This document shows positions 6,333 to 56,258 of a DNA stretch of 64,000 nt, piece after piece (the stretch's first letter is position 1; each line of letters begins with the position of its first letter). The notes under the pieces are model-generated. The model had not been told where the DNA came from. It saw only the letters and a program-made list of their open reading frames with translations, and did no database searches. The translations under genes were made by a program, and so were the position numbers. The DNA comes from an uncultured virus (IMG/VR IMGVR_UViG_3300003815_000003) (taxonomy: Duplodnaviria > Heunggongvirae > Uroviricota > Caudoviricetes): the IMG/VR virus record IMGVR_UViG_3300003815_000003, one strand, 5' to 3'.

Positions 6333-6515
6333 TTACTTGGATGGTTCAGAGAGGATTTGAGTAACTCCTTGTTTACAGAAAGAACCGCAATTGGTGCAGC
6401 GCCATGTACAATTCATTACTTTCTTTCCAGAGGATTCAGTGACTGATTGTTCTCTGCCGTACACCGTACCGCTACAACTTTGACATCTAATGGGGACATT
6501 TCTAATAAGGTTCAT
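6333..6515 (-). CDS. small Zn-ribbon protein
   Basis: CQSC...CTNC. Confidence 0.65.
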   Translation of the reverse strand: MNLIRNVPIRCQSCSGTVYGREQSVTESSGKKVMNCTWRCTNCGSFCKQGVTQILSEPSK

Positions 6516-6521
6516 ATTTTT

Positions 6522-6848
6522 CTATTTATTATCGAATGGCTCGAATATCTTCTTCAATCTGACATAGTCAGCATATTGTTGTTTTCTGCGTTTTTCTTCT
6601 TGCCATTTATATACATCCGTTCGTTTAAGGAATTCCTCATCTGTTTCTTTTCGATGTCCCACAAATATTAATTTGAGAGATTCGTAATCATAGCTTAACT
6701 TAATCTTATTAAGACCTTGTTTTGCTCCTTGTCTCGCCGCTTTTTCAAAAAGATTTCGCAATAAAGAAACTGCTTCTTCTTCATATACATCATCAAATTC
6801 AAAATTGTTTAGTTCACAAATTTCAAGTTGTTTAATTTCTTTTTCCAT
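6522..6848 (-). CDS. hypothetical protein
   Basis: ORF in operon. Confidence 0.65.
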   Translation of the reverse strand: MEKEIKQLEICELNNFEFDDVYEEEAVSLLRNLFEKAARQGAKQGLNKIKLSYDYESLKLIFVGHRKETDEEFLKRTDVYKWQEEKRRKQQYADYVRLKKIFEPFDNK

Positions 6849-6854
6849 ATTTTT

Positions 6855-7775
6855 TTATAGTGAAAGGTTATCTATCCAATTCTCGCAATCTTGATCATTG
6901 GTGATTTTAGAGAATAATTGTTGCCAAGAACCAATTTGTCTTAATACACTTGTTCCGCCATATTCATTCATCAAATCAATAAATTCTTTACGATTGAATT
7001 TACTATCTCTCTGTTCGTTGATCTGTTGTTCCGCATGAAGCATATCATCTGAACAATTCTTCATTCCGTAAGAAATGTCAACGACCTTTAAATTATTTCT
7101 AATTAATTCTTTCTGTTCGTCCGTCAGTTTATCATATTCTTCTAAAGAACTTTTATTAATTTCTTCTGCAAGGGTACATGCTCTCTTATCCCCAAATTTA
7201 GGCAATCCTTCAATGTTATCGGAAACATCTCCTTTAATTGCTTTGAATAGAATATAACTTTCCAAAGAACAACCTGCAAACTCCACAAAATTATTAATAT
7301 CAACTATTCCTCGATTAGGAAGCAATTGATCAGTTTTATGAGAAACTAATTGTAATAAATCTCTATCCGAAGAAACAATTAAATTATTTCCTTCTAATAC
7401 AGAACAAAGATAATAAATGACATCGTCTCCTTCCAGACTATATGGTAATATAGTTTTAATTCCAAGGGTATTACAAATATTAATTATAATAGGGAAATAC
7501 GTGTGAATCTGTCTAGTATCGTCTGATTCAACACGTTGTTCTTTGTAAGAGGAAACTAAGGTTCTACGAAAGTTAACGGCATCTGGATTGGAACGTTTAT
7601 CCCATGTGATATAAACATTGTTTGGGGTATATTCTTCCATGAGATTCTTAAGCATTGTTAAGAATTTATGAATTGGGGCAATATTTAAACCATTATGAAA
7701 TTTAGGATATTTCTTTTGAGCAAAATATGCACGATATAAAAAATTGTTTCCATCTATGATAAGATTGTTATACAT
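6855..7775 (-). CDS. rnh: 5'-3' exonuclease / T4 RNase H-like flap endonuclease
   Basis: IDGNNFLYRAY, EGDDVI, SSDRDLLQL, GDVSDNIEGLPKFGDK motifs. Confidence 0.9.
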   Translation of the reverse strand: MYNNLIIDGNNFLYRAYFAQKKYPKFHNGLNIAPIHKFLTMLKNLMEEYTPNNVYITWDKRSNPDAVNFRRTLVSSYKEQRVESDDTRQIHTYFPIIINICNTLGIKTILPYSLEGDDVIYYLCSVLEGNNLIVSSDRDLLQLVSHKTDQLLPNRGIVDINNFVEFAGCSLESYILFKAIKGDVSDNIEGLPKFGDKRACTLAEEINKSSLEEYDKLTDEQKELIRNNLKVVDISYGMKNCSDDMLHAEQQINEQRDSKFNRKEFIDLMNEYGGTSVLRQIGSWQQLFSKITNDQDCENWIDNLSL

Positions 7776-12018: not shown

Positions 12019-13515
12019 ATGGCAGATTTTTATTTTTATAATAATGGAAGCGGTGACACTGATTGGAACAATCCCAACAATTGGTGGCTGGATAGAGCTT
12101 ATAGTAATCCAGTGGGAAGTGTTCCTACCCCTTCTTCCGGGCAACTAGTCGAAATTGATTCTAATTTAGATACCAATATTCCAAATTGGACGTTTGATGT
12201 ATATATCGGCGTTGCATACGTTACTTTAACATTAGATGTTGGAAGTTTTGGTACAGTAACTTTGGGAGCTAATTCGGTGCTAACAATTCAGAGCGGAACG
12301 CTTACATTAGGCGGTAATCTTTCTAATGGGGGAACCATAGATTTAATTGGAGGGAATATTAGTATTCTAGAAGGTAGTATTAGTAATACATATAGTATCA
12401 ATATATCTGTAGGAACAACACTATTGAATTATGGAGGAATATTAGATAATAGTGCAGGTTATCTGGTTAACTACGGAACCTTTAATAATTCAGGATTTTT
12501 TGCACAAGGCAACTTTTTTAATTATGGAACATATATTAACAACTATTATTATTACAATAATTTAGGAGAAACCGGTTGGAATGCGGGAAACTCTTGGTGG
12601 TTCGACCCTTCTTATAGTTTTCCAGTTGATGAAGTTCCTACTTTTATTCCAAATCAAGATGTTGCTAACATATATTCTAATATTGATACCAATATTCCAC
12701 AAACATTAAATATTCCTGTCAATCTTTATGCAAATTTTACTATAGACACTAGCTTATGTTATATTTCTAGTGTTATTAATGTTTATAACTATAGTTTATT
12801 CATTATAAACAATTATGTGAATAATACAGGAACTATTAATTTATATAATTATTCTCAATTACAAAATTTTAGTCTTATAGAAAACAATAATAGTTTAATT
12901 GTTAATAACAATGGAACTTTTACTAATAATGGTAAGCTACAAAATAATCAATCAATACAGATATTAGATAATGGAACATTGACGAGCACGTCAGGATATT
13001 TTAATAATCTCGGTGTATTTTCTATATCTTGGGGAGCATTAATTTATATAGATCAAACAAAATATTTAGGAAATTTATTTTGTAATGGCGTATTTTCGGC
13101 ATCATACATTTTTTATGACAATACTCTACAACAAGAGATTGCTTCCTTGGATTATGTGTCATATAATCCAGGTATATTTCTTAATATAGTTGCTCCTAGT
13201 ACTTTAGGTAGTACCATATGTCCCATTATTAATTATAGTGCCTTAACATATACAGGGGATCAAGTGTTTTATCCTTTGATTAATAATGGTACTTTAACTA
13301 CAACTAATACAGTGAATTTAAATCAACCGTTCACTAACAATGGTTCTGTTATCAACAACGGTTCTCTTACAATATCCAGCACATTTACTACAGTGCCCTC
13401 TGCAACCCTTATTAATAATGGAACATTTGCTTATGGAAGTTATACAACAAATTTTAAAGGACCGATTTATCCACAAGTTCCTTCTTCTGCATCATGGGGG
13501 AATATTTTCATCTAA
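12019..13515 (+). CDS. putative tail fibre/adhesin, Asn/Gly/Thr-rich beta-helix
   Basis: Repeated NNGT/NYGT units; two copies of YxYNN..G.T.WN..N.WW.D..YS.PV..VPT. Confidence 0.6.
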   Translation: MADFYFYNNGSGDTDWNNPNNWWLDRAYSNPVGSVPTPSSGQLVEIDSNLDTNIPNWTFDVYIGVAYVTLTLDVGSFGTVTLGANSVLTIQSGTLTLGGNLSNGGTIDLIGGNISILEGSISNTYSINISVGTTLLNYGGILDNSAGYLVNYGTFNNSGFFAQGNFFNYGTYINNYYYYNNLGETGWNAGNSWWFDPSYSFPVDEVPTFIPNQDVANIYSNIDTNIPQTLNIPVNLYANFTIDTSLCYISSVINVYNYSLFIINNYVNNTGTINLYNYSQLQNFSLIENNNSLIVNNNGTFTNNGKLQNNQSIQILDNGTLTSTSGYFNNLGVFSISWGALIYIDQTKYLGNLFCNGVFSASYIFYDNTLQQEIASLDYVSYNPGIFLNIVAPSTLGSTICPIINYSALTYTGDQVFYPLINNGTLTTTNTVNLNQPFTNNGSVINNGSLTISSTFTTVPSATLINNGTFAYGSYTTNFKGPIYPQVPSSASWGNIFI

Positions 13516-13550
13516 AAGTTAAAACGAAATGATAAATAGATACTAAGATC

Positions 13551-13826
13551 ATGGCTCAAATTACTTCTTCAACTCCTATCAGTGCTGCTCCTTTTAATCA
13601 ATATTGGGTTCAGTCTTTAAACATCAATGGTTCTCCTGCCGGTAAAACAACTGCAACTGTTATGCTTAAACCCTTCAATGGTACATTAACTCTTGATTCT
13701 TTCAAGGTTCTAAACATTCCTGATGTATTTGGGCTTGCTGCCACTGATCCAACTTTTGCTGCCGTAGTTACTAGCTTAATCAACGAAATTGAACGTCAGG
13801 CAAAACTTAAAGGTGTAATTTCTTAA
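13551..13826 (+). CDS. putative small late/virion protein
   Basis: TAAATA box upstream; A/T/S-rich. Confidence 0.55.
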   Translation: MAQITSSTPISAAPFNQYWVQSLNINGSPAGKTTATVMLKPFNGTLTLDSFKVLNIPDVFGLAATDPTFAAVVTSLINEIERQAKLKGVIS

Positions 13827-14083
13827 ACAGCAACAGGCATTGTTACTTTGCCCAAAGATTGATAGTTTTCTAAAATAGAATCAGAATATTGCCAATCAAA
13901 AATGTTAGTAAAATTCGGAGTTTGAATTCGTGGTAATTCAAACTCCGTTTTTCTTTTTAAGATTTCTTCAACTCCATCCAATTGATTTTCATAGATATGA
14001 ACATTGGAAAGAAATCCGGTTAACATACCTTCTTCCAGGCATGATTCTTTTGCAAGAATATTTCATTTATTAAAGGGAATACC
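13823..14083 (-). pseudogene. thyA: thymidylate synthase ThyA 3' remnant
   Basis: In-frame GIPFN-K-stop-N-ILAKESCLEEGMLTGFLSNVHIYENQ...KVTMPVAV matches the ThyA C-terminus (GLPFN...HxYxN...PVAI); about 6 codons missing after PFN; N-terminal portion with catalytic Cys absent. Confidence 0.85.
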
Positions 14084-14095
14084 ATAAATATAATC

Positions 14096-14860
14096 ATGGA
14101 CAAGATAAAAGGAATATATGCAATAGTTAATATAGTAAATCATAAAAAATACATAGGTAGTTCGAAAAATATTAAGAAAAGATGGACTTCGCACAAAACT
14201 CGCCTCAATAGTAATATACATCATTCGGATTTCATGCAAAGAGCATGGAACAAATACGGTAAAGACAATTTCAAGTTAACGATATTGGAAGTTTTAGATG
14301 TAGAAAGTAGTGCTAATGATTTGTTTGCTAAAGAACAAGAATGGATTAATAAGTTAAATCCAGAATATAATGTAGGATCAGTTGGCGGGGGAGATAATTT
14401 GACTAATCATCCTCGTCGAGAGGAAATTATTGAAAAAATAACTAAATCTTCTCAAGAAAGAATGGATAATATGACCGAAGAGGATAAAGAGAAAATGCGT
14501 CAAAATTCTTTAGGTGATAAAAATCCTAATTGGAGAGGTGGAATATCAAAGATTAAAGGAGCATGTGTGGATTGCGGAACAGAAATTTGGAAAGATCGTA
14601 TAAGATGTGTTCTATGTTCAAAAAAAGGAACAAATAACCCTTTTTTCGGAAAACAGCATTCTGAAGAAACAAAAAAGAAAATGACAGATTCCCATAAAGG
14701 TAAACCTAATATTGCACAACGTAAAGCAATTATTATAGATGGTGTATATTACGCATCATATAATGATGCAGCGTTAGCATTAGGAGTAACGGGTGCTATG
14801 ATTACATATAGAGTGAAAAAGAATACACCTGGTTATATAACCGTTCCCAATAAGTCATAA
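14096..14860 (+). CDS. free-standing GIY-YIG homing endonuclease, I-TevI-like
   Basis: GIYAIVN..KKYIGSS, GDNLTNHPRREEII, CxxC...CxxC Zn finger, NUMOD3 NPFFGKQHSEETK, C-terminal IIDGVYYAS..AA...ITYRVK helix-turn-helix. Confidence 0.92.
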   Translation: MDKIKGIYAIVNIVNHKKYIGSSKNIKKRWTSHKTRLNSNIHHSDFMQRAWNKYGKDNFKLTILEVLDVESSANDLFAKEQEWINKLNPEYNVGSVGGGDNLTNHPRREEIIEKITKSSQERMDNMTEEDKEKMRQNSLGDKNPNWRGGISKIKGACVDCGTEIWKDRIRCVLCSKKGTNNPFFGKQHSEETKKKMTDSHKGKPNIAQRKAIIIDGVYYASYNDAALALGVTGAMITYRVKKNTPGYITVPNKS

Positions 14861-15541
14861 TTTAAATGCTTCGATGCTATATTGAAACGGGTTTCCATTA
14901 ATCTGCTTAACAAGATTAAGCATTTCTTCAGCAATTTCCCTAATTTCTAATTGGGCATCTAATTTATTACGTAATCCTTGAAAATGTATAAATGATCGCC
15001 AGTTAAACATTACGTCAATTTGTATTTGACTGTTATATGTTTTGAAAAAACGAGCTGATTCTTTTGCACGTTTTCGCCCTATTACAGGTTCTAAATCTTT
15101 TAATGCTGAATGATATAATCTATTACTTAATTCAGTGTATTCTTGAAGAAGAGTTGCCCAGTCCTTATTTTCAAAAGTATCATTGGTGGTATCATCTGAA
15201 TTTATATGAAAATATGACGATGATTGAACATTTTTCCAATCATTAGGAATATAGAATTTATCTTCTTTCAATTCTTTATATCTAGCACTTTCGCCATTTA
15301 TAGAAACTCCGATTCTATGTTTAAGAAAATGAATATGAGAAGCAATATCGCTATCTACAAGAAAATGTAAAGAACTCTTTTCAAAAGGAGTATGATGCCC
15401 TTTTTCCGCTAACATTTTTAAAATAGCAGGGATTCTTTCCTTTTTTTCATTTGTTAAATTACGTGTAGTACTAGTCCATGCCGAACAAGCATGACTTTCA
15501 TCCCCGCCATAATACCCAATTAATTCTACTTTATTATTCAT
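14855..15541 (-). CDS. thyX: flavin-dependent thymidylate synthase ThyX
   Basis: GHHTPFE, KHRIGVSINGESARY (RHR-x-S motif variant), NWRSFIHF..LR...AQLEIR. Confidence 0.9.
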   Translation of the reverse strand: MNNKVELIGYYGGDESHACSAWTSTTRNLTNEKKERIPAILKMLAEKGHHTPFEKSSLHFLVDSDIASHIHFLKHRIGVSINGESARYKELKEDKFYIPNDWKNVQSSSYFHINSDDTTNDTFENKDWATLLQEYTELSNRLYHSALKDLEPVIGRKRAKESARFFKTYNSQIQIDVMFNWRSFIHFQGLRNKLDAQLEIREIAEEMLNLVKQINGNPFQYSIEAFKL

Positions 15542-15744
15542 TTGTTATTTTTCTGTCTTACTTTTTCTCGATGAAGATTGAAACATTCTGCGCATCTCCA
15601 ATTACGAATACCATTATAAGGCAAGGTATCCTTGTTTTCAACAACTACATGAAAAGGAGGTTTTTTATGACACGGTTCTTCATTTGGAAGAATACCTGAT
15701 CCTACACAAATTTTCCAAACCTCTTTCATAATATTATCCTTCAC
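15538..15744 (-). CDS. small hypothetical protein
   Basis: ATGA-coupled ORF. Confidence 0.5.
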   Translation of the reverse strand: MKDNIMKEVWKICVGSGILPNEEPCHKKPPFHVVVENKDTLPYNGIRNWRCAECFNLHREKVRQKNNK

Positions 15745-15946
15745 ACTTCTTAATAGTTATTTTACAATGTTCGCACCATGAACACCCACATTTCATACAC
15801 TCTGGCCCATTATGGGGTTCTACATATAGGCGGAACATATCGATACCTTCCCCATATTCCGGGTCTTTTTTATAAAGAACATGCCCCACTTTTTCTAGTT
15901 CAGAAATAAAATCAAGACGTGATTGGTCAAATGTACTCCAACTCAT
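15734..15946 (-). CDS. small Cys-rich hypothetical protein
   Basis: CMKCGCSWCEHC. Confidence 0.55.
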   Translation of the reverse strand: MSWSTFDQSRLDFISELEKVGHVLYKKDPEYGEGIDMFRLYVEPHNGPECMKCGCSWCEHCKITIKKCEG

Positions 15947-16133
15947 AATATTATCCTCTTACGTATCTCCCTTTACCATTCTCTTGCATCTGATAGATAG
16001 CAATTCCACCATAATAAGGAACTTCATGAAACTCGCTATTATCATCTGCATCAATATGGATTTCTGCACCACATAATGGACCACCAACTAGTTCTACAGG
16101 TATTAACGTTGCATTCATTATTTTTTTTATTAA

Positions 16134-16409
16134 TTATTCGTAGTCTGATTCATCGTCGCCGTTTTCTTCTTTTTCGTCAAAAACGAACAAGGCACATTCG
16201 TCTATAAAGTTATTCCAGTCAACTTCTTTTTGAAATCTAACAGGAATAGTTTCTAGTAATTCTTCTTTAATATCATCTAAAGTGAAATCACTTTCTTTTT
16301 CTAATTCTTTAGCACGTCTAGCAATCTTACTAAGCGCACTATCAGTAATAGCTAAATCCGCATCTTCTGCAAAAGTTTCAAATTGTGTTTTATATTCTTC
16401 TAAAGTCAT
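16134..16409 (-). CDS. acidic hypothetical protein
   Basis: ORF; TAAATA box 10 nt upstream. Confidence 0.6.
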   Translation of the reverse strand: MTLEEYKTQFETFAEDADLAITDSALSKIARRAKELEKESDFTLDDIKEELLETIPVRFQKEVDWNNFIDECALFVFDEKEENGDDESDYE

Positions 16410-16438
16410 AATTAATTTTTATTTAGTAGAAACGAAAG

Positions 16439-16478
16439 AAAAGGGAAAATGAAATAACCTTTTCATTTTCCCTTTTTT
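16439..16478. terminator. intrinsic terminator hairpin
   Basis: AAAAGGGAAAATGAAA-TAACCT-TTTCATTTTCCCTTTT. Confidence 0.75.
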
Positions 16479-16482
16479 AGAA

Positions 16483-16899
16483 TTAAGCAACAATTACTAA
16501 TTCTTCTTCATCTTCCATAACTGATCCAGTTTGAACCTGTTCTGTTTCCTCATTAGAATTAGTTTCTACGGGCGCAATAGCATTTTCTGCTACGTTGATA
16601 CTCATATCAGTTTCAACAGGCTTAGAAACGGCTTTAATTGGCTTAGAACGCAATGCTCGTAATGCATTAGCAATATTGGGATGAAGGTTATATTTCTCCA
16701 TTGCAGAAGCAACTGTTTCTTTATCAAAGACAAGTTTGTTACGGCCTCCTTGACCGACATAACTGGCTTTTAGTTCTTCTGCTGTTACGTTGTAACGGGT
16801 TTGAAGTTCGCGAAATTGTTTAGGATTGGTATGAAGGGGTTCGCCTGTTACAGCATCCTTTAGTTCATAATTATTTTCTGGATTTTTTGGACGACTCAT
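16483..16899 (-). CDS. hypothetical protein with acidic tail
   Basis: ORF with own TTGACA-N16-TAAGAT promoter (16983-16956, minus). Confidence 0.65.
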   Translation of the reverse strand: MSRPKNPENNYELKDAVTGEPLHTNPKQFRELQTRYNVTAEELKASYVGQGGRNKLVFDKETVASAMEKYNLHPNIANALRALRSKPIKAVSKPVETDMSINVAENAIAPVETNSNEETEQVQTGSVMEDEEELVIVA

Positions 16900-30251: not shown

Positions 30252-30509
30252 ATGGCTATCTTCGATTCTCTTCTTGCTCTTATCCAATTAGGAATTCAAT
30301 ATCTTAAATTGAAGAATCAAACCGTTTTCTTTGATCTTTGTGATAGTTTTGAATCTCAATTAGATAAATTGTCAGCAAGAAGAGAATCCTTAAGAAAAGA
30401 AACTTCTTCGGAAGCACAACAAAAAGCAGATGATATTATGGACCAAATTTTAGAAATTCAAAAAAGAAAGAAACTCTTTCTAGCCGATTGGAAAAATAAT
30501 AAATTATGA
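30252..30509 (+). CDS. late protein with N-terminal hydrophobic helix and coiled coil (i-spanin candidate)
   Basis: LLALIQLGIQYL then charged helical region; TAAGTA box upstream. Confidence 0.4.
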   Translation: MAIFDSLLALIQLGIQYLKLKNQTVFFDLCDSFESQLDKLSARRESLRKETSSEAQQKADDIMDQILEIQKRKKLFLADWKNNKL

Positions 30510-30733
30510 ATAAAACTATTTTAACTCTTTTATTAATCTGGAATGTTTGTGTGTTTTCCTCTTGTGAAAACCATAAAGCAGTTCAAAATATTTATCAACC
30601 CAAAGTTCTAATTCTGAAACCTAATTCTATTATTGAAACCAAAGAAGGTGTTTATTCTTCTTCGGATAAAGAAGAAATTTGGTATAGCCGAGAATCAATT
30701 TCTAAGCTGGAAAAACAACTTTCTCAGTTTTAG
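30506..30733 (+). CDS. small lipoprotein (o-spanin candidate)
   Basis: MNKTILTLLLIWNVCVFSSC signal/lipobox-like; ATGA overlap. Confidence 0.45.
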   Translation: MNKTILTLLLIWNVCVFSSCENHKAVQNIYQPKVLILKPNSIIETKEGVYSSSDKEEIWYSRESISKLEKQLSQF

Positions 30734-52973: not shown

Positions 52974-53825
52974 ATGTGTCTATTAATTTTTAAACCAGCA
53001 GGAAAGTTAGTTCCTAATATTTTCCTTGAGAATGCAGCAGATCGTAATCCCCATGGATGTGGAATTGCATTTGCTCAAAATAATAAAATTGTAGTAGAGA
53101 AATCGGCCAAATGGGGAGCAACAGAAATCGCCAAAGTATTAGAAGATAATCATGAATATCCTGCAATTATTCATTTCCGCTATGCTACTCATGGTTCACA
53201 AACTAAAGATAACACTCATCCTTTTATTCTAAATGAAAGTTGGGTTGCTGCTCATAATGGCATTATTCCTTCTGTCCAAACTAAAGGTGATGAAAGTGAT
53301 ACCAGAGCATTCCTTCGACAACGTGTTATTCCTTTGCTCAAAAATAATGTAAGATTAGATGATAATGCTATTCTTGCACAGTTGGGGAAAGCCATGGGAC
53401 AAACTAATAAAATGGCATTCCTTGCTGCCGATGGAAGTTTTGGAATTGCTAACGAGAAAAGTGGTCATTGGAAAGATGGCGTTTGGTATAGTAATCATTC
53501 TTACGAAGAATATGTTTATCAAGTTCCTCGTTCCCCTGGATTTGGTTATAGCAACAAATATAAACACCAGACAGGATTTTATTCAGGTCGGGATGATTAT
53601 TTTTCTGGTTCAAGTCGGTCTAGTATGTATGAAGATCAATATTATCCAGAAGAAGAATTAGAAAACATTTACACGAAGAAAAAACCTGATGATGATGAAG
53701 TGTGGCATCATATTGATTTGCATGCATTATCTTGTGATAGTTGTGGGCAGAATATCAAGGATGAATTTCGTCTAGAAGGACATTCAGGATTAATGTATTG
53801 CTTTGATTGTTATAATAAGATTTAA
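52974..53825 (+). CDS. class II (Ntn) glutamine amidotransferase
   Basis: N-terminal MC, NPHGCG, HFRYATHG, NTHPF, HNG, ESDT. Confidence 0.9.
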   Translation: MCLLIFKPAGKLVPNIFLENAADRNPHGCGIAFAQNNKIVVEKSAKWGATEIAKVLEDNHEYPAIIHFRYATHGSQTKDNTHPFILNESWVAAHNGIIPSVQTKGDESDTRAFLRQRVIPLLKNNVRLDDNAILAQLGKAMGQTNKMAFLAADGSFGIANEKSGHWKDGVWYSNHSYEEYVYQVPRSPGFGYSNKYKHQTGFYSGRDDYFSGSSRSSMYEDQYYPEEELENIYTKKKPDDDEVWHHIDLHALSCDSCGQNIKDEFRLEGHSGLMYCFDCYNKI

Positions 53826-55289: not shown

Positions 55290-56258
55290 ATGTGCCTTCT
55301 TATTTTTAAACCAGCAGGATTAAGTGTTCCTGAAAATCATTTAATTGCAGCAGCAAACGGTAATCCGCATGGAAGTGGAATTGCAATTGCTACGGGAAAT
55401 GAAATTATTATTCATAAAGACCCTGCATGGCGAGCCAAGGAAATCACTGAAATTCTTAAACAGAATGAACAATATCCGGCAATTATTCATTTTCGTTTTG
55501 CTACTCATGGAAGTAAAACCGTTGCCAATACTCATCCTTTTATTCTTAATAATGATTGGGTAGCTGCTCATAATGGGGTAATTAGTATTTCTACTGAACC
55601 AGATGAAAGTGATACAAGGGCATTTCTTCGTAAGAATGTTATCCCCATTATTGAAAATGGTTATACATTAACAGATAAAGAAATTCTGGCTATTCTTTCC
55701 GAAGAAATGGGAAAATCTAATAAGATGACTTTCCTTCATAAGAATGGTGAATATGGGATTGCTAATGAAGCCAGCGGACATTGGAAAGACGGTGTATGGT
55801 ATAGTAATCATGGTTACATGCATACTTGCCATTATGGTGATTGGGAAGATGATGATATGGATTGGTCATATCATGGAGCATATCAGAATCATAACACTCA
55901 ATACTTTGATTATCGGACTAAAGCGCCCAAAGCGCCTGTTCCTCCTCGTTTTAGCGCATTTGGAAAGGTGATTGAAGATGACGATAGCGGAAGTCGTTAT
56001 GATGCGGAATATGACAACAGGAATGCATTAATGGTGCTTCCTGATAAAGTTAACCAATATAATGAAAAATGGCATATCATGGATACATTGAATACGGTTT
56101 GTGATTCTTGCCATCAGGAGATTTGGGGAAAATATGCATATGAATCTACGGAAGAATTATATGTTTGTGAAGAATGTTGTAAATTTCTTCCCGCATCATT
56201 AGGTATTCCTCGAAGCATGCGAATGGTTGATACCGTAGAAGTAGAAGTAGAACAATAA
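55290..56258 (+). CDS. class II (Ntn) glutamine amidotransferase
   Basis: N-terminal MC, NPHGSG, HFRFATHG, NTHPF, HNG, ESDT. Confidence 0.9.
   Translation: MCLLIFKPAGLSVPENHLIAAANGNPHGSGIAIATGNEIIIHKDPAWRAKEITEILKQNEQYPAIIHFRFATHGSKTVANTHPFILNNDWVAAHNGVISISTEPDESDTRAFLRKNVIPIIENGYTLTDKEILAILSEEMGKSNKMTFLHKNGEYGIANEASGHWKDGVWYSNHGYMHTCHYGDWEDDDMDWSYHGAYQNHNTQYFDYRTKAPKAPVPPRFSAFGKVIEDDDSGSRYDAEYDNRNALMVLPDKVNQYNEKWHIMDTLNTVCDSCHQEIWGKYAYESTEELYVCEECCKFLPASLGIPRSMRMVDTVEVEVEQ

Follow-up and report, generated by a model that had tools for sequence, protein, structure and literature searches.

How one enzyme comes to stand, in place, where the gene of another to which it is unrelated used to be is the question that this locus raises. 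The thymidylate synthases ThyA and ThyX are the standard example of unrelated enzymes replacing one another, and the swap is usually ascribed to metabolic fit or to chance transfer. In the window (the whole 64,000-nucleotide stretch of viral DNA analysed here), a cassette consists of a thyA 3' stub beside thyX and an inverted nuclease of the I-TevI family, the latter two standing in for the 5' three quarters of thyA. A first-pass annotation had proposed that such a unit cuts the thyA of co-infecting relatives and supplies a substitute enzyme. That overall interpretation is supported, since its testable comparative predictions held: a ThyA-like remnant, a thyA-linked nuclease, full-length alleles 84-94% identical to the stub, and a relative (L148) with intact thyA. 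We regard it as probable, with real room for doubt, that thyX and the nuclease form one homing unit that overwrites thyA.

The surrounding sequence is a linear virus record of 71,811 bases, about 27% complete, which carries T4-like tail tube, clamp loader and NrdA genes. Because a metagenome contig of 262,045 bases (L141) has the same thyA stub at 100% identity, the window's virus can be taken for a jumbo phage. The sequencing runs that best hold the window sequence are freshwater metagenomes, and there are no RNA runs among the 10 listed. Two other records (L001 and L002) are 100% identical to the window along 6.2 and 6.5 kb, and three diverged contigs show the same arrangement, so the locus is not an assembly artefact. 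Elsewhere, the window holds two paralogous amidotransferase-like open reading frames (52974-53825 and 55290-56258) that both begin MCLLIFKPAG; a pair of short neighbouring paralogs, each starting MKTITW, lies at 65319-65604 of the virus record.

Anatomy of the cassette

The substitute enzyme is encoded by an intact thyX on the minus strand (14855..15541, 228 aa), in thyA's orientation as first described. This flavin-dependent thymidylate synthase passes the equivalog TIGR02170 (103 bits against a cut-off of 87.9) and matches Pfam Thy1 at E 1.6e-30. Its ThyX motif, KHR..S..ESARY, recurs in 32 of 32 aligned homologs, all of them with Lys at the first Arg position; the consensus motif has Arg there. 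Among carriers of the cassette, thyX has a dN/dS of 0.10-0.21; the best tree does not unite the ThyX of the four cassettes, though a single clade is not rejected (p-AU 0.235).

Convergent with thyX, and overlapping it by 6 nt, is the gene of a free-standing, full-length GIY-YIG homing endonuclease of the I-TevI family (14096..14860, plus strand, 254 aa), oriented oppositely as the first-pass annotation had it. The I-TevI architecture attributed to it is also there: the GD..HP..EEII linker, the four cysteines of a zinc finger and TYRVK are all present, the GIY-YIG (PF01541, E 2e-14), NUMOD3 (PF07460) and I-TevI_DNA-bd (PF20987) domains each score above the Pfam cut-off, and the protein passes TIGR01453. 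It is 35% identical to T4 I-TevI over 240 residues; R29, E80 and N92 align with I-TevI R27, E75 and N90, which we take to be the catalytic residues, and the four cysteines are invariant in three carriers. In all six carrier pairs the nuclease dN/dS is 0.21-0.26, indicating purifying selection. No intron or intein surrounds the gene, and the 72 kb hold no 5' exon such as a mobile td-type intron would have. A group I intron, or a thyA split by one, was rejected as a candidate: there is no Rfam match and no room, and the nuclease lies on the opposite strand. Rfam returned no RNA family in 13400-16500 at E<=0.1. The T4 td intron itself does sit in thyA where it had been placed, between ...TTGGGT and CTACCGTTT.

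The expected kinship with thyA-associated nucleases is seen in a quick tree of 48 rows, in which the four cassette nucleases form their own clade inside a group with support of 100. All 11 other members of that group lie in or beside thyA, and 33 distinct homologs without thyA in the fetched flank fall outside it; because the thyA-linked rows were picked by hand, the tree shows association with thyA, not exclusivity. Five of the 40 phage matches listed were examined: annotation places four of them inside or next to a thymidylate synthase gene, and the fifth, unannotated, has thyA pieces on both sides.

On the minus strand the thyA remnant starts, as claimed, at GIPFN (GGT ATT CCC TTT AAT from 14083), with a thyA-like register reaching weakly to an Asp codon at 14095 that adjoins the nuclease start codon. 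The in-frame stop comes after the GIPFN codons (AAA TGA AAT ATT, reading GIPFN-K-stop-N-I), and the deletion of about six codons is confirmed against the full-length ThyA P0121, three codons standing in place of nine; this junction, with its TGA and net six-codon loss, occupies 14057..14068. Beyond it, the stub proper (13823..14056, minus strand) preserves the ThyA C-terminus in 77 open codons and a stop ending at 13823, and is likely the right homology arm. When the TGA is translated as X, profile searches score the remnant as significantly ThyA-like (Pfam Thymidylat_synt, E 9e-14, above cut-off; PHROG 160, E 2e-14), and it covers only positions 188-266 of the 266 in the Thymidylat_synt profile. 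It is thus not the full-length enzyme with the catalytic PCH region that a functional ThyA would be, and it scores below all equivalog cut-offs. Apart from the stub, neither a thyA 5' half nor any other thyA match was found in the 72 kb (27% of the genome).

The junction frame varies among carriers, with a stop in the window, a frameshift in L040 and L098 and an open frame in L143, and two of the four junctions have an in-frame start codon (ATG in L143, TTG in L040). Recoding of the TGA as an amino acid was rejected, the same junction being frameshifted in two other carriers. Beyond the junction the stub is open in all four, with a dN/dS of 0.13-0.34 at a dS of 0.7-1.4; by 0.5 substitutions per site, a neutral copy would be expected to have kept its frame open in about 1% of cases.

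Within the window's stub lies a 13-bp hairpin with a T-run on the nuclease-sense strand (13916..13957, plus strand), which likely ends transcription of the convergent 91-aa gene of the right flank (13551..13826, plus strand). That gene has a 69% homolog at the same place in L098 and no Pfam or PHROG match. Shuffled sequences were equally stable in 0, 1, 0 and 0 of 40 cases for the four stubs (0 of 40 for the window), whereas the ends of three intact thyA genes gave 19, 40 and 11 of 40. The hairpins of the other three stubs differ from the window's in sequence and position, and the differences between the arms in L098 and L143 are paired changes. The hairpin may predate the cassette. On the other side, four small genes upstream of thyX (68, 70, 55 and 91 aa; 15538..16409, minus strand) likely hold the left homology arm; all four are found in L040 and three in L098.

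Between the nuclease start and the junction, the spacer is invariant in the window, L040 and L098 and has two changes in L143; near-invariant while its frame to the stub varies, it is conserved as DNA and not as protein. The same invariance applies to the element inside it, an operator-like copy of the thyA binding half-site (DYIYGIPFNK; 14066..14095, minus strand), inverted relative to the nuclease gene. Overlapping this element, 5 nt ahead of the nuclease ATG, is a late-type promoter-like motif, CATAAATA (14083..14090, plus strand), which we infer to be the promoter of the nuclease gene. The motif TAAATA lies within 40 nt upstream of 9 of 128 open reading frames (about 2 expected; P 3e-4) and precedes the nuclease in all four carriers; a sigma-70 scan gave no excess (13 sites against 14.2 expected). 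The GIPFN stretch lies where it was first described, but it is better read as a retained half-site, likely serving as the nuclease's operator over the late-type promoter, and not simply as debris.

That reading draws on likeness to T4. The GIPFN element shares CCCTTTAATAAAT, a 13-nt exact match, with the sequence upstream of T4 I-TevI, whose role as operator rests on its position and on the available part of a review describing an operator that overlaps a late promoter. Over 30 nt the element scores 20/30 against this T4 stretch, 19/30 against the T4 homing site and 16-18/30 against intact alleles, so that it may be either a thyA remnant or an arrival with the nuclease. Its sequence and position fit the I-TevI type, with the orientation inverted relative to T4. 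The cleavage motif CNNNG, which is I-TevI's preference according to the available text of PMC12774661 and may not be that of the cassette nuclease, occurs at -27..-23 in none of the four cassettes and at -19..-15 in all of them. I-TevI cleaves intronless thyA 23/25 nt ahead of the intron insertion point, and in L148 and L144, whose thyA is intact, CAGCG occupies -27..-23; the poorly cut T4 operator has CNNNG at -19..-15, according to the available part of the review.

Target mimics ahead of the nuclease are found in T4, L126 and Xanthomonas phage Xoo-sp13 as well. In L126, L135 and L140, where the nucleases are intron-borne, the sequence VDIFLGIPINM copies the thyA site almost perfectly and in frame, about 60 nt ahead of the nuclease ATG, and is a clear operator candidate. 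Xoo-sp13, whose nuclease is free-standing and convergent with thyA, shows a short mimic of its own thyA's LYGS codons after a TATAAATA motif, upstream of the nuclease ATG (L224:2460-2495).

Carriers, relatives and alleles

The cassette anatomy is present in four diverged genomes. The same cassette at the same locus is carried by L040 (ThyX 69%, nuclease 68%), L098 (73% and 65%) and L143 (65% and 66%). The first-pass description of a displacement "caught in the act" was too strong, four carriers with nuclease dS of 0.2-1.1 between them pointing to an old, recurring element.

L098 and L143 are 92% identical in the 5' part of thyX, 92% in L143's original thyX 3' end and 93% in the nuclease. In the stub they agree at 29 of the first 30 nt, and identity then falls to 79% over stub nt 31-165. 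This shared block indicates that thyX and the nuclease travelled as one, its right-hand limit lying some 30 nt inside the stub. A flanking gene is 78% identical between the two, and the same gene pairs L143 with L040 at 91%. Ordinary recombination could also be the source of both the L098/L143 block and the stub exchange.

The window's own stub is 94, 91 and 84% identical to the full-length ThyA P0121, P0122 and P0124, the only three found at 80% or more by protein search, and 62-74% identical to the other three stubs. A single clade of the four stubs is rejected (p-AU 0.00013, 77 columns), and remains disfavoured when three context-free short proteins are added (p-AU 0.02). With 94% identity to a full-length ThyA and one stub clade rejected, the window's stub, at least, was derived recently from a working thyA. 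For the stubs of L040, L098 and L143 the nearest full-length ThyA found are 74-75% identical, and no closer source alleles turned up. In keeping with the suggestion that it acts as a homology arm, the stub behaves as recipient-derived in its 94% identity to P0121, in the lack of one stub clade, in the L098/L143 edge and in the comparison of L040 with L143, where stub codons 1-55 show 11 synonymous and no replacement differences.

The xPFN motif, kept by 85 of 99 more distant ThyA, is replaced by IPLN, LGWN and ICLN in the three full-length ones nearest to the window's stub; the association of PF loss with nearness to the stub (Fisher P 0.004) comes from three alleles that are kin. These nearest intact alleles, their target codons altered, may no longer be cut, and the changes fit escape alleles selected by cutting. 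P0121 and P0122 have near-identical ends and a middle that has diverged up to the xPFN motif. A mosaic middle part and unusual xPFN codons are features of the full-length ThyA P0121, P0122, P0124 and P0245-P0249, and one cluster member of the full-length ThyA nearest to the window's stub lies on a 262,243-base contig.

The first-pass annotation had asked for relatives with intact thyA at this position. One exists: L148, a distant relative, has an intact thyA reading LLGIPFN in a syntenic setting, with homologs of the 91-aa (47%) and 55-aa (36%, E 0.02) genes upstream, two other genes between and a different downstream gene. In the DNA of close relatives none was seen, and one of these has a third, shorter allele. 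This relative, about 91% alike in the flanks, is represented by a contig of run X8 in which 13810 and 16014 are joined by 792 other letters; a thyA of 290 codons would not fit there, so that this is a third state, and the locus is polymorphic, with at least one state that a simple homing model does not predict. A loose end at this same position, 16014, recurs in runs X5 and X7. In runs X5, X7 and X10 the flanks are covered at about 90% and the cassette is not; as no contig spans the cassette region, these runs prove nothing about the state of thyA. Runs X3, X4, X6 and X9 gave short pieces only. Scans of viral contigs with flanking genes (4 and 2 loci) returned only carriers or identical copies, scans with the stub (42 and 80 loci) yielded L143 and L148, and neither P0122 in viral contigs (12 loci) nor P0121 in GTDB genomes (6 loci) led to a syntenic locus.

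At 29 other thyX loci there is neither a piece of thyA nor an adjacent member of the cassette's nuclease family (one has a 31% GIY-YIG about 4.5 kb away), so thyX, present there without the nuclease, needs no drive to spread. L143 has a second nuclease in its cassette, endonuclease-VII-like and inverted behind thyX (L143:589-1359), preceded by a new 3' end of thyX and followed by the original one (92% to L098), now displaced: within the cassette, thyX is a homing target in its own right. In L040 an endonuclease-VII/HNH-like gene (6424-6969, 181 aa) that is absent from the window and L098 lies directly upstream of thyX, and in L025 (5001-7407) thyX is followed by a 513-aa gene and a duplicated thyX 3' piece (residues 154-226, 60%). 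Homologs of the window genes at 30252-30509 (and 30506-30733) lie upstream of thyX in L004, L005, L017 and L018 and upstream of thyA in L102/L146, possibly marking a second site of thyA/thyX swapping at which no nuclease is seen. As to the host, a gene of 421-424 aa in L098 (383-1648) and L040 (601-1875) has a twin-arginine-like N-terminus and no PHROG or NCBIfam match; to us it recalls the DUF1501 proteins of Planctomycetes and Verrucomicrobia, and may give a hint.

A proposed homing route and its alternatives

If the unit homes, the nuclease would bind xxLG|xPFN in the intact thyA of a co-infecting relative and cut within the Gln-Arg codons, some 25 nt upstream, a step for which the nuclease tree and I-TevI biochemistry are the grounds, and would stay bound 3', as I-TevI does. 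Resection would run 5' through thyA to the small upstream genes, the tract on the right would stop roughly 30 nt inside the stub, and thyX and the nuclease would be copied in during repair, leaving the recipient without thyA and with an unrelated enzyme for the same job. The retained half-site, overlapping the late-type promoter and lacking a cleavage motif at the normal distance, would then autorepress as an operator, while the terminator in the stub would stop the convergent gene from reading into the nuclease, and the stub would be kept. Homing would also account for a stub that looks selected without being a gene, because what remains there is the recipient's own thyA end. The observations fit a unit of thyX and nuclease that has homed into thyA alleles more than once. 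Several facts count against it: intact thyA at this position is known only from distant L148, the P0121-type alleles are known here without DNA context, the X8 relative has a third state, three stubs have no source allele among the full-length ThyA found, two junctions offer a start codon, the closest intact alleles may no longer be cut, thyX is found at 29 loci without the nuclease, and the cassette ThyX are scattered in the best tree.

The alternative that survives best, although we think it unlikely, is a relic of two steps, in which the nuclease invaded thyA with a new 3' end and left the old end as the stub, and thyX later displaced thyA for unrelated reasons; the unit would no longer home, and the stub would be kept for its terminator and operator and swapped by ordinary recombination. 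Parts of such a history can be pointed to, since the layout of gene, inverted nuclease and displaced 3' stub is found at thyX in L143, intact thyA convergent with a nuclease of the same clade occurs in Xoo-sp13 and L104, thyX occurs without the nuclease at the 29 other loci, and hairpins in all four stubs offer a reason for retention. The intermediate with thyA, nuclease and stub is nevertheless absent among the four carriers, and in Xoo-sp13 and L104 a six-frame reading of the sequence ahead of the convergent nuclease likewise showed no thyA stub. A relic also sits poorly with a nuclease intact and under selection in all four carriers, and with an L098/L143 block that spans thyX and the nuclease and stops 30 nt into the stub. 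Such a history could well be the cassette's origin and is compatible with later homing.

Improbable as the main explanation is a weapon of competition, the nuclease mainly harming thyA-carrying co-infecting phages or host thyA, with thyX as immunity and copying rare. An intron endonuclease does block a co-infecting phage in the available text of PMC11620839, the altered target codons of the nearest intact alleles would fit selection by cutting here too, and related ThyA (47-52% to P0121) occur in Patescibacteria genomes; yet by itself a weapon leaves the recipient-like stubs and the sharp-ended shared block unexplained, and it is compatible with homing and not exclusive of it. Slightly less credible still is a stub expressed as a peptide of 67-79 aa (a split-enzyme half or an inhibitor of the ThyA dimer) and kept by selection on protein, for despite the open frame in four of four, 11 synonymous and no replacement differences between L040 and L143 over stub codons 1-55, stub-sized proteins starting at or near the junction in 6 of 22 matches and three stubs for which no close intact source was found, the four have no start codon in common, the junction frame varies, the window's stub nests among full-length alleles, no TAAATA motif lies ahead of the stub, no thyA 5' half is found in the 72 kb and the short database proteins are automatic gene calls.

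Homing of thyX and the nuclease as one unit therefore remains our preferred reading. The larger claim, that this is a natural and still active home-and-rescue drive in jumbo phages that swaps thyA for thyX, reuses half of its target as operator and arm and has driven the escape changes at a near-invariant motif of the ThyA alleles that remain, we hold to be evenly balanced. If true, the spread of a selfish element would directly explain how a gene is displaced in place by a non-orthologous one, and the cassette offers a concrete route for the thyA/thyX swap that needs no metabolic advantage. It would add a third way for a homing endonuclease to secure immunity, by abolishing the target gene and carrying an analog, beside the intron and the resistant homolog, and it suggests that an operator of the I-TevI type can arise from half of a homing site. 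A search of titles and the opening parts of abstracts, mostly from outside the subscription journals, found no description of such a cassette, which we accordingly present as a form of intronless homing for which no published description was found.

Comparison with known systems

The nearest relative in mechanism is I-TevI of the T4 td group I intron, with its isoschizomer I-BmoI, with which the cassette nuclease shares domain order, 35% identity and the same thymidylate synthase region, as well as a target-like sequence with the 13-nt exact match that overlaps a late-type promoter. Unlike td, the cassette has no intron and its nuclease gene is inverted, and immunity differs accordingly: in td the site is interrupted and splicing restores the gene product, whereas here the target gene is lost and thyX is carried.

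In being free-standing, the nuclease resembles the seg and mob endonucleases of T4, for which the available part of PMC2988022 describes intronless homing by break repair with co-conversion of flanks, the same manner of inheritance as is proposed here. In that source, however, seg and mob targets are kept as resistant homologs and cut hundreds to thousands of base pairs from the nuclease gene; in the cassette roughly 5-10 nt separate the nuclease gene from the predicted cut, and a non-homologous enzyme stands in for the truncated target. The nucleases next to thyA in the T5-like phage SelmaRatti and in Xoo-sp13 belong to the same clade and also sit without an intron by a thymidylate synthase gene, but both phages keep a full thyA and have neither thyX nor a stub.

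A closer parallel in layout is thyX in L143, where gene, nuclease and displaced 3' stub recur; rescue there is by a homologous gene end, and in the cassette by a whole unrelated gene. In fungal mitochondrial atp6 and atp9, nuclease insertions have arrived with a new 3' end and pushed the old one aside, again with a homologous gene end as the rescue. The logic of the cassette is that of synthetic home-and-rescue drives, in which, as set out in the available text of PMC7968924, an essential gene is cut, the element is copied in and a rescue is carried along. Those drives are engineered, Cas9-based and supplied with a recoded rescue; the cassette would be a natural one, with an analogous enzyme as its rescue.
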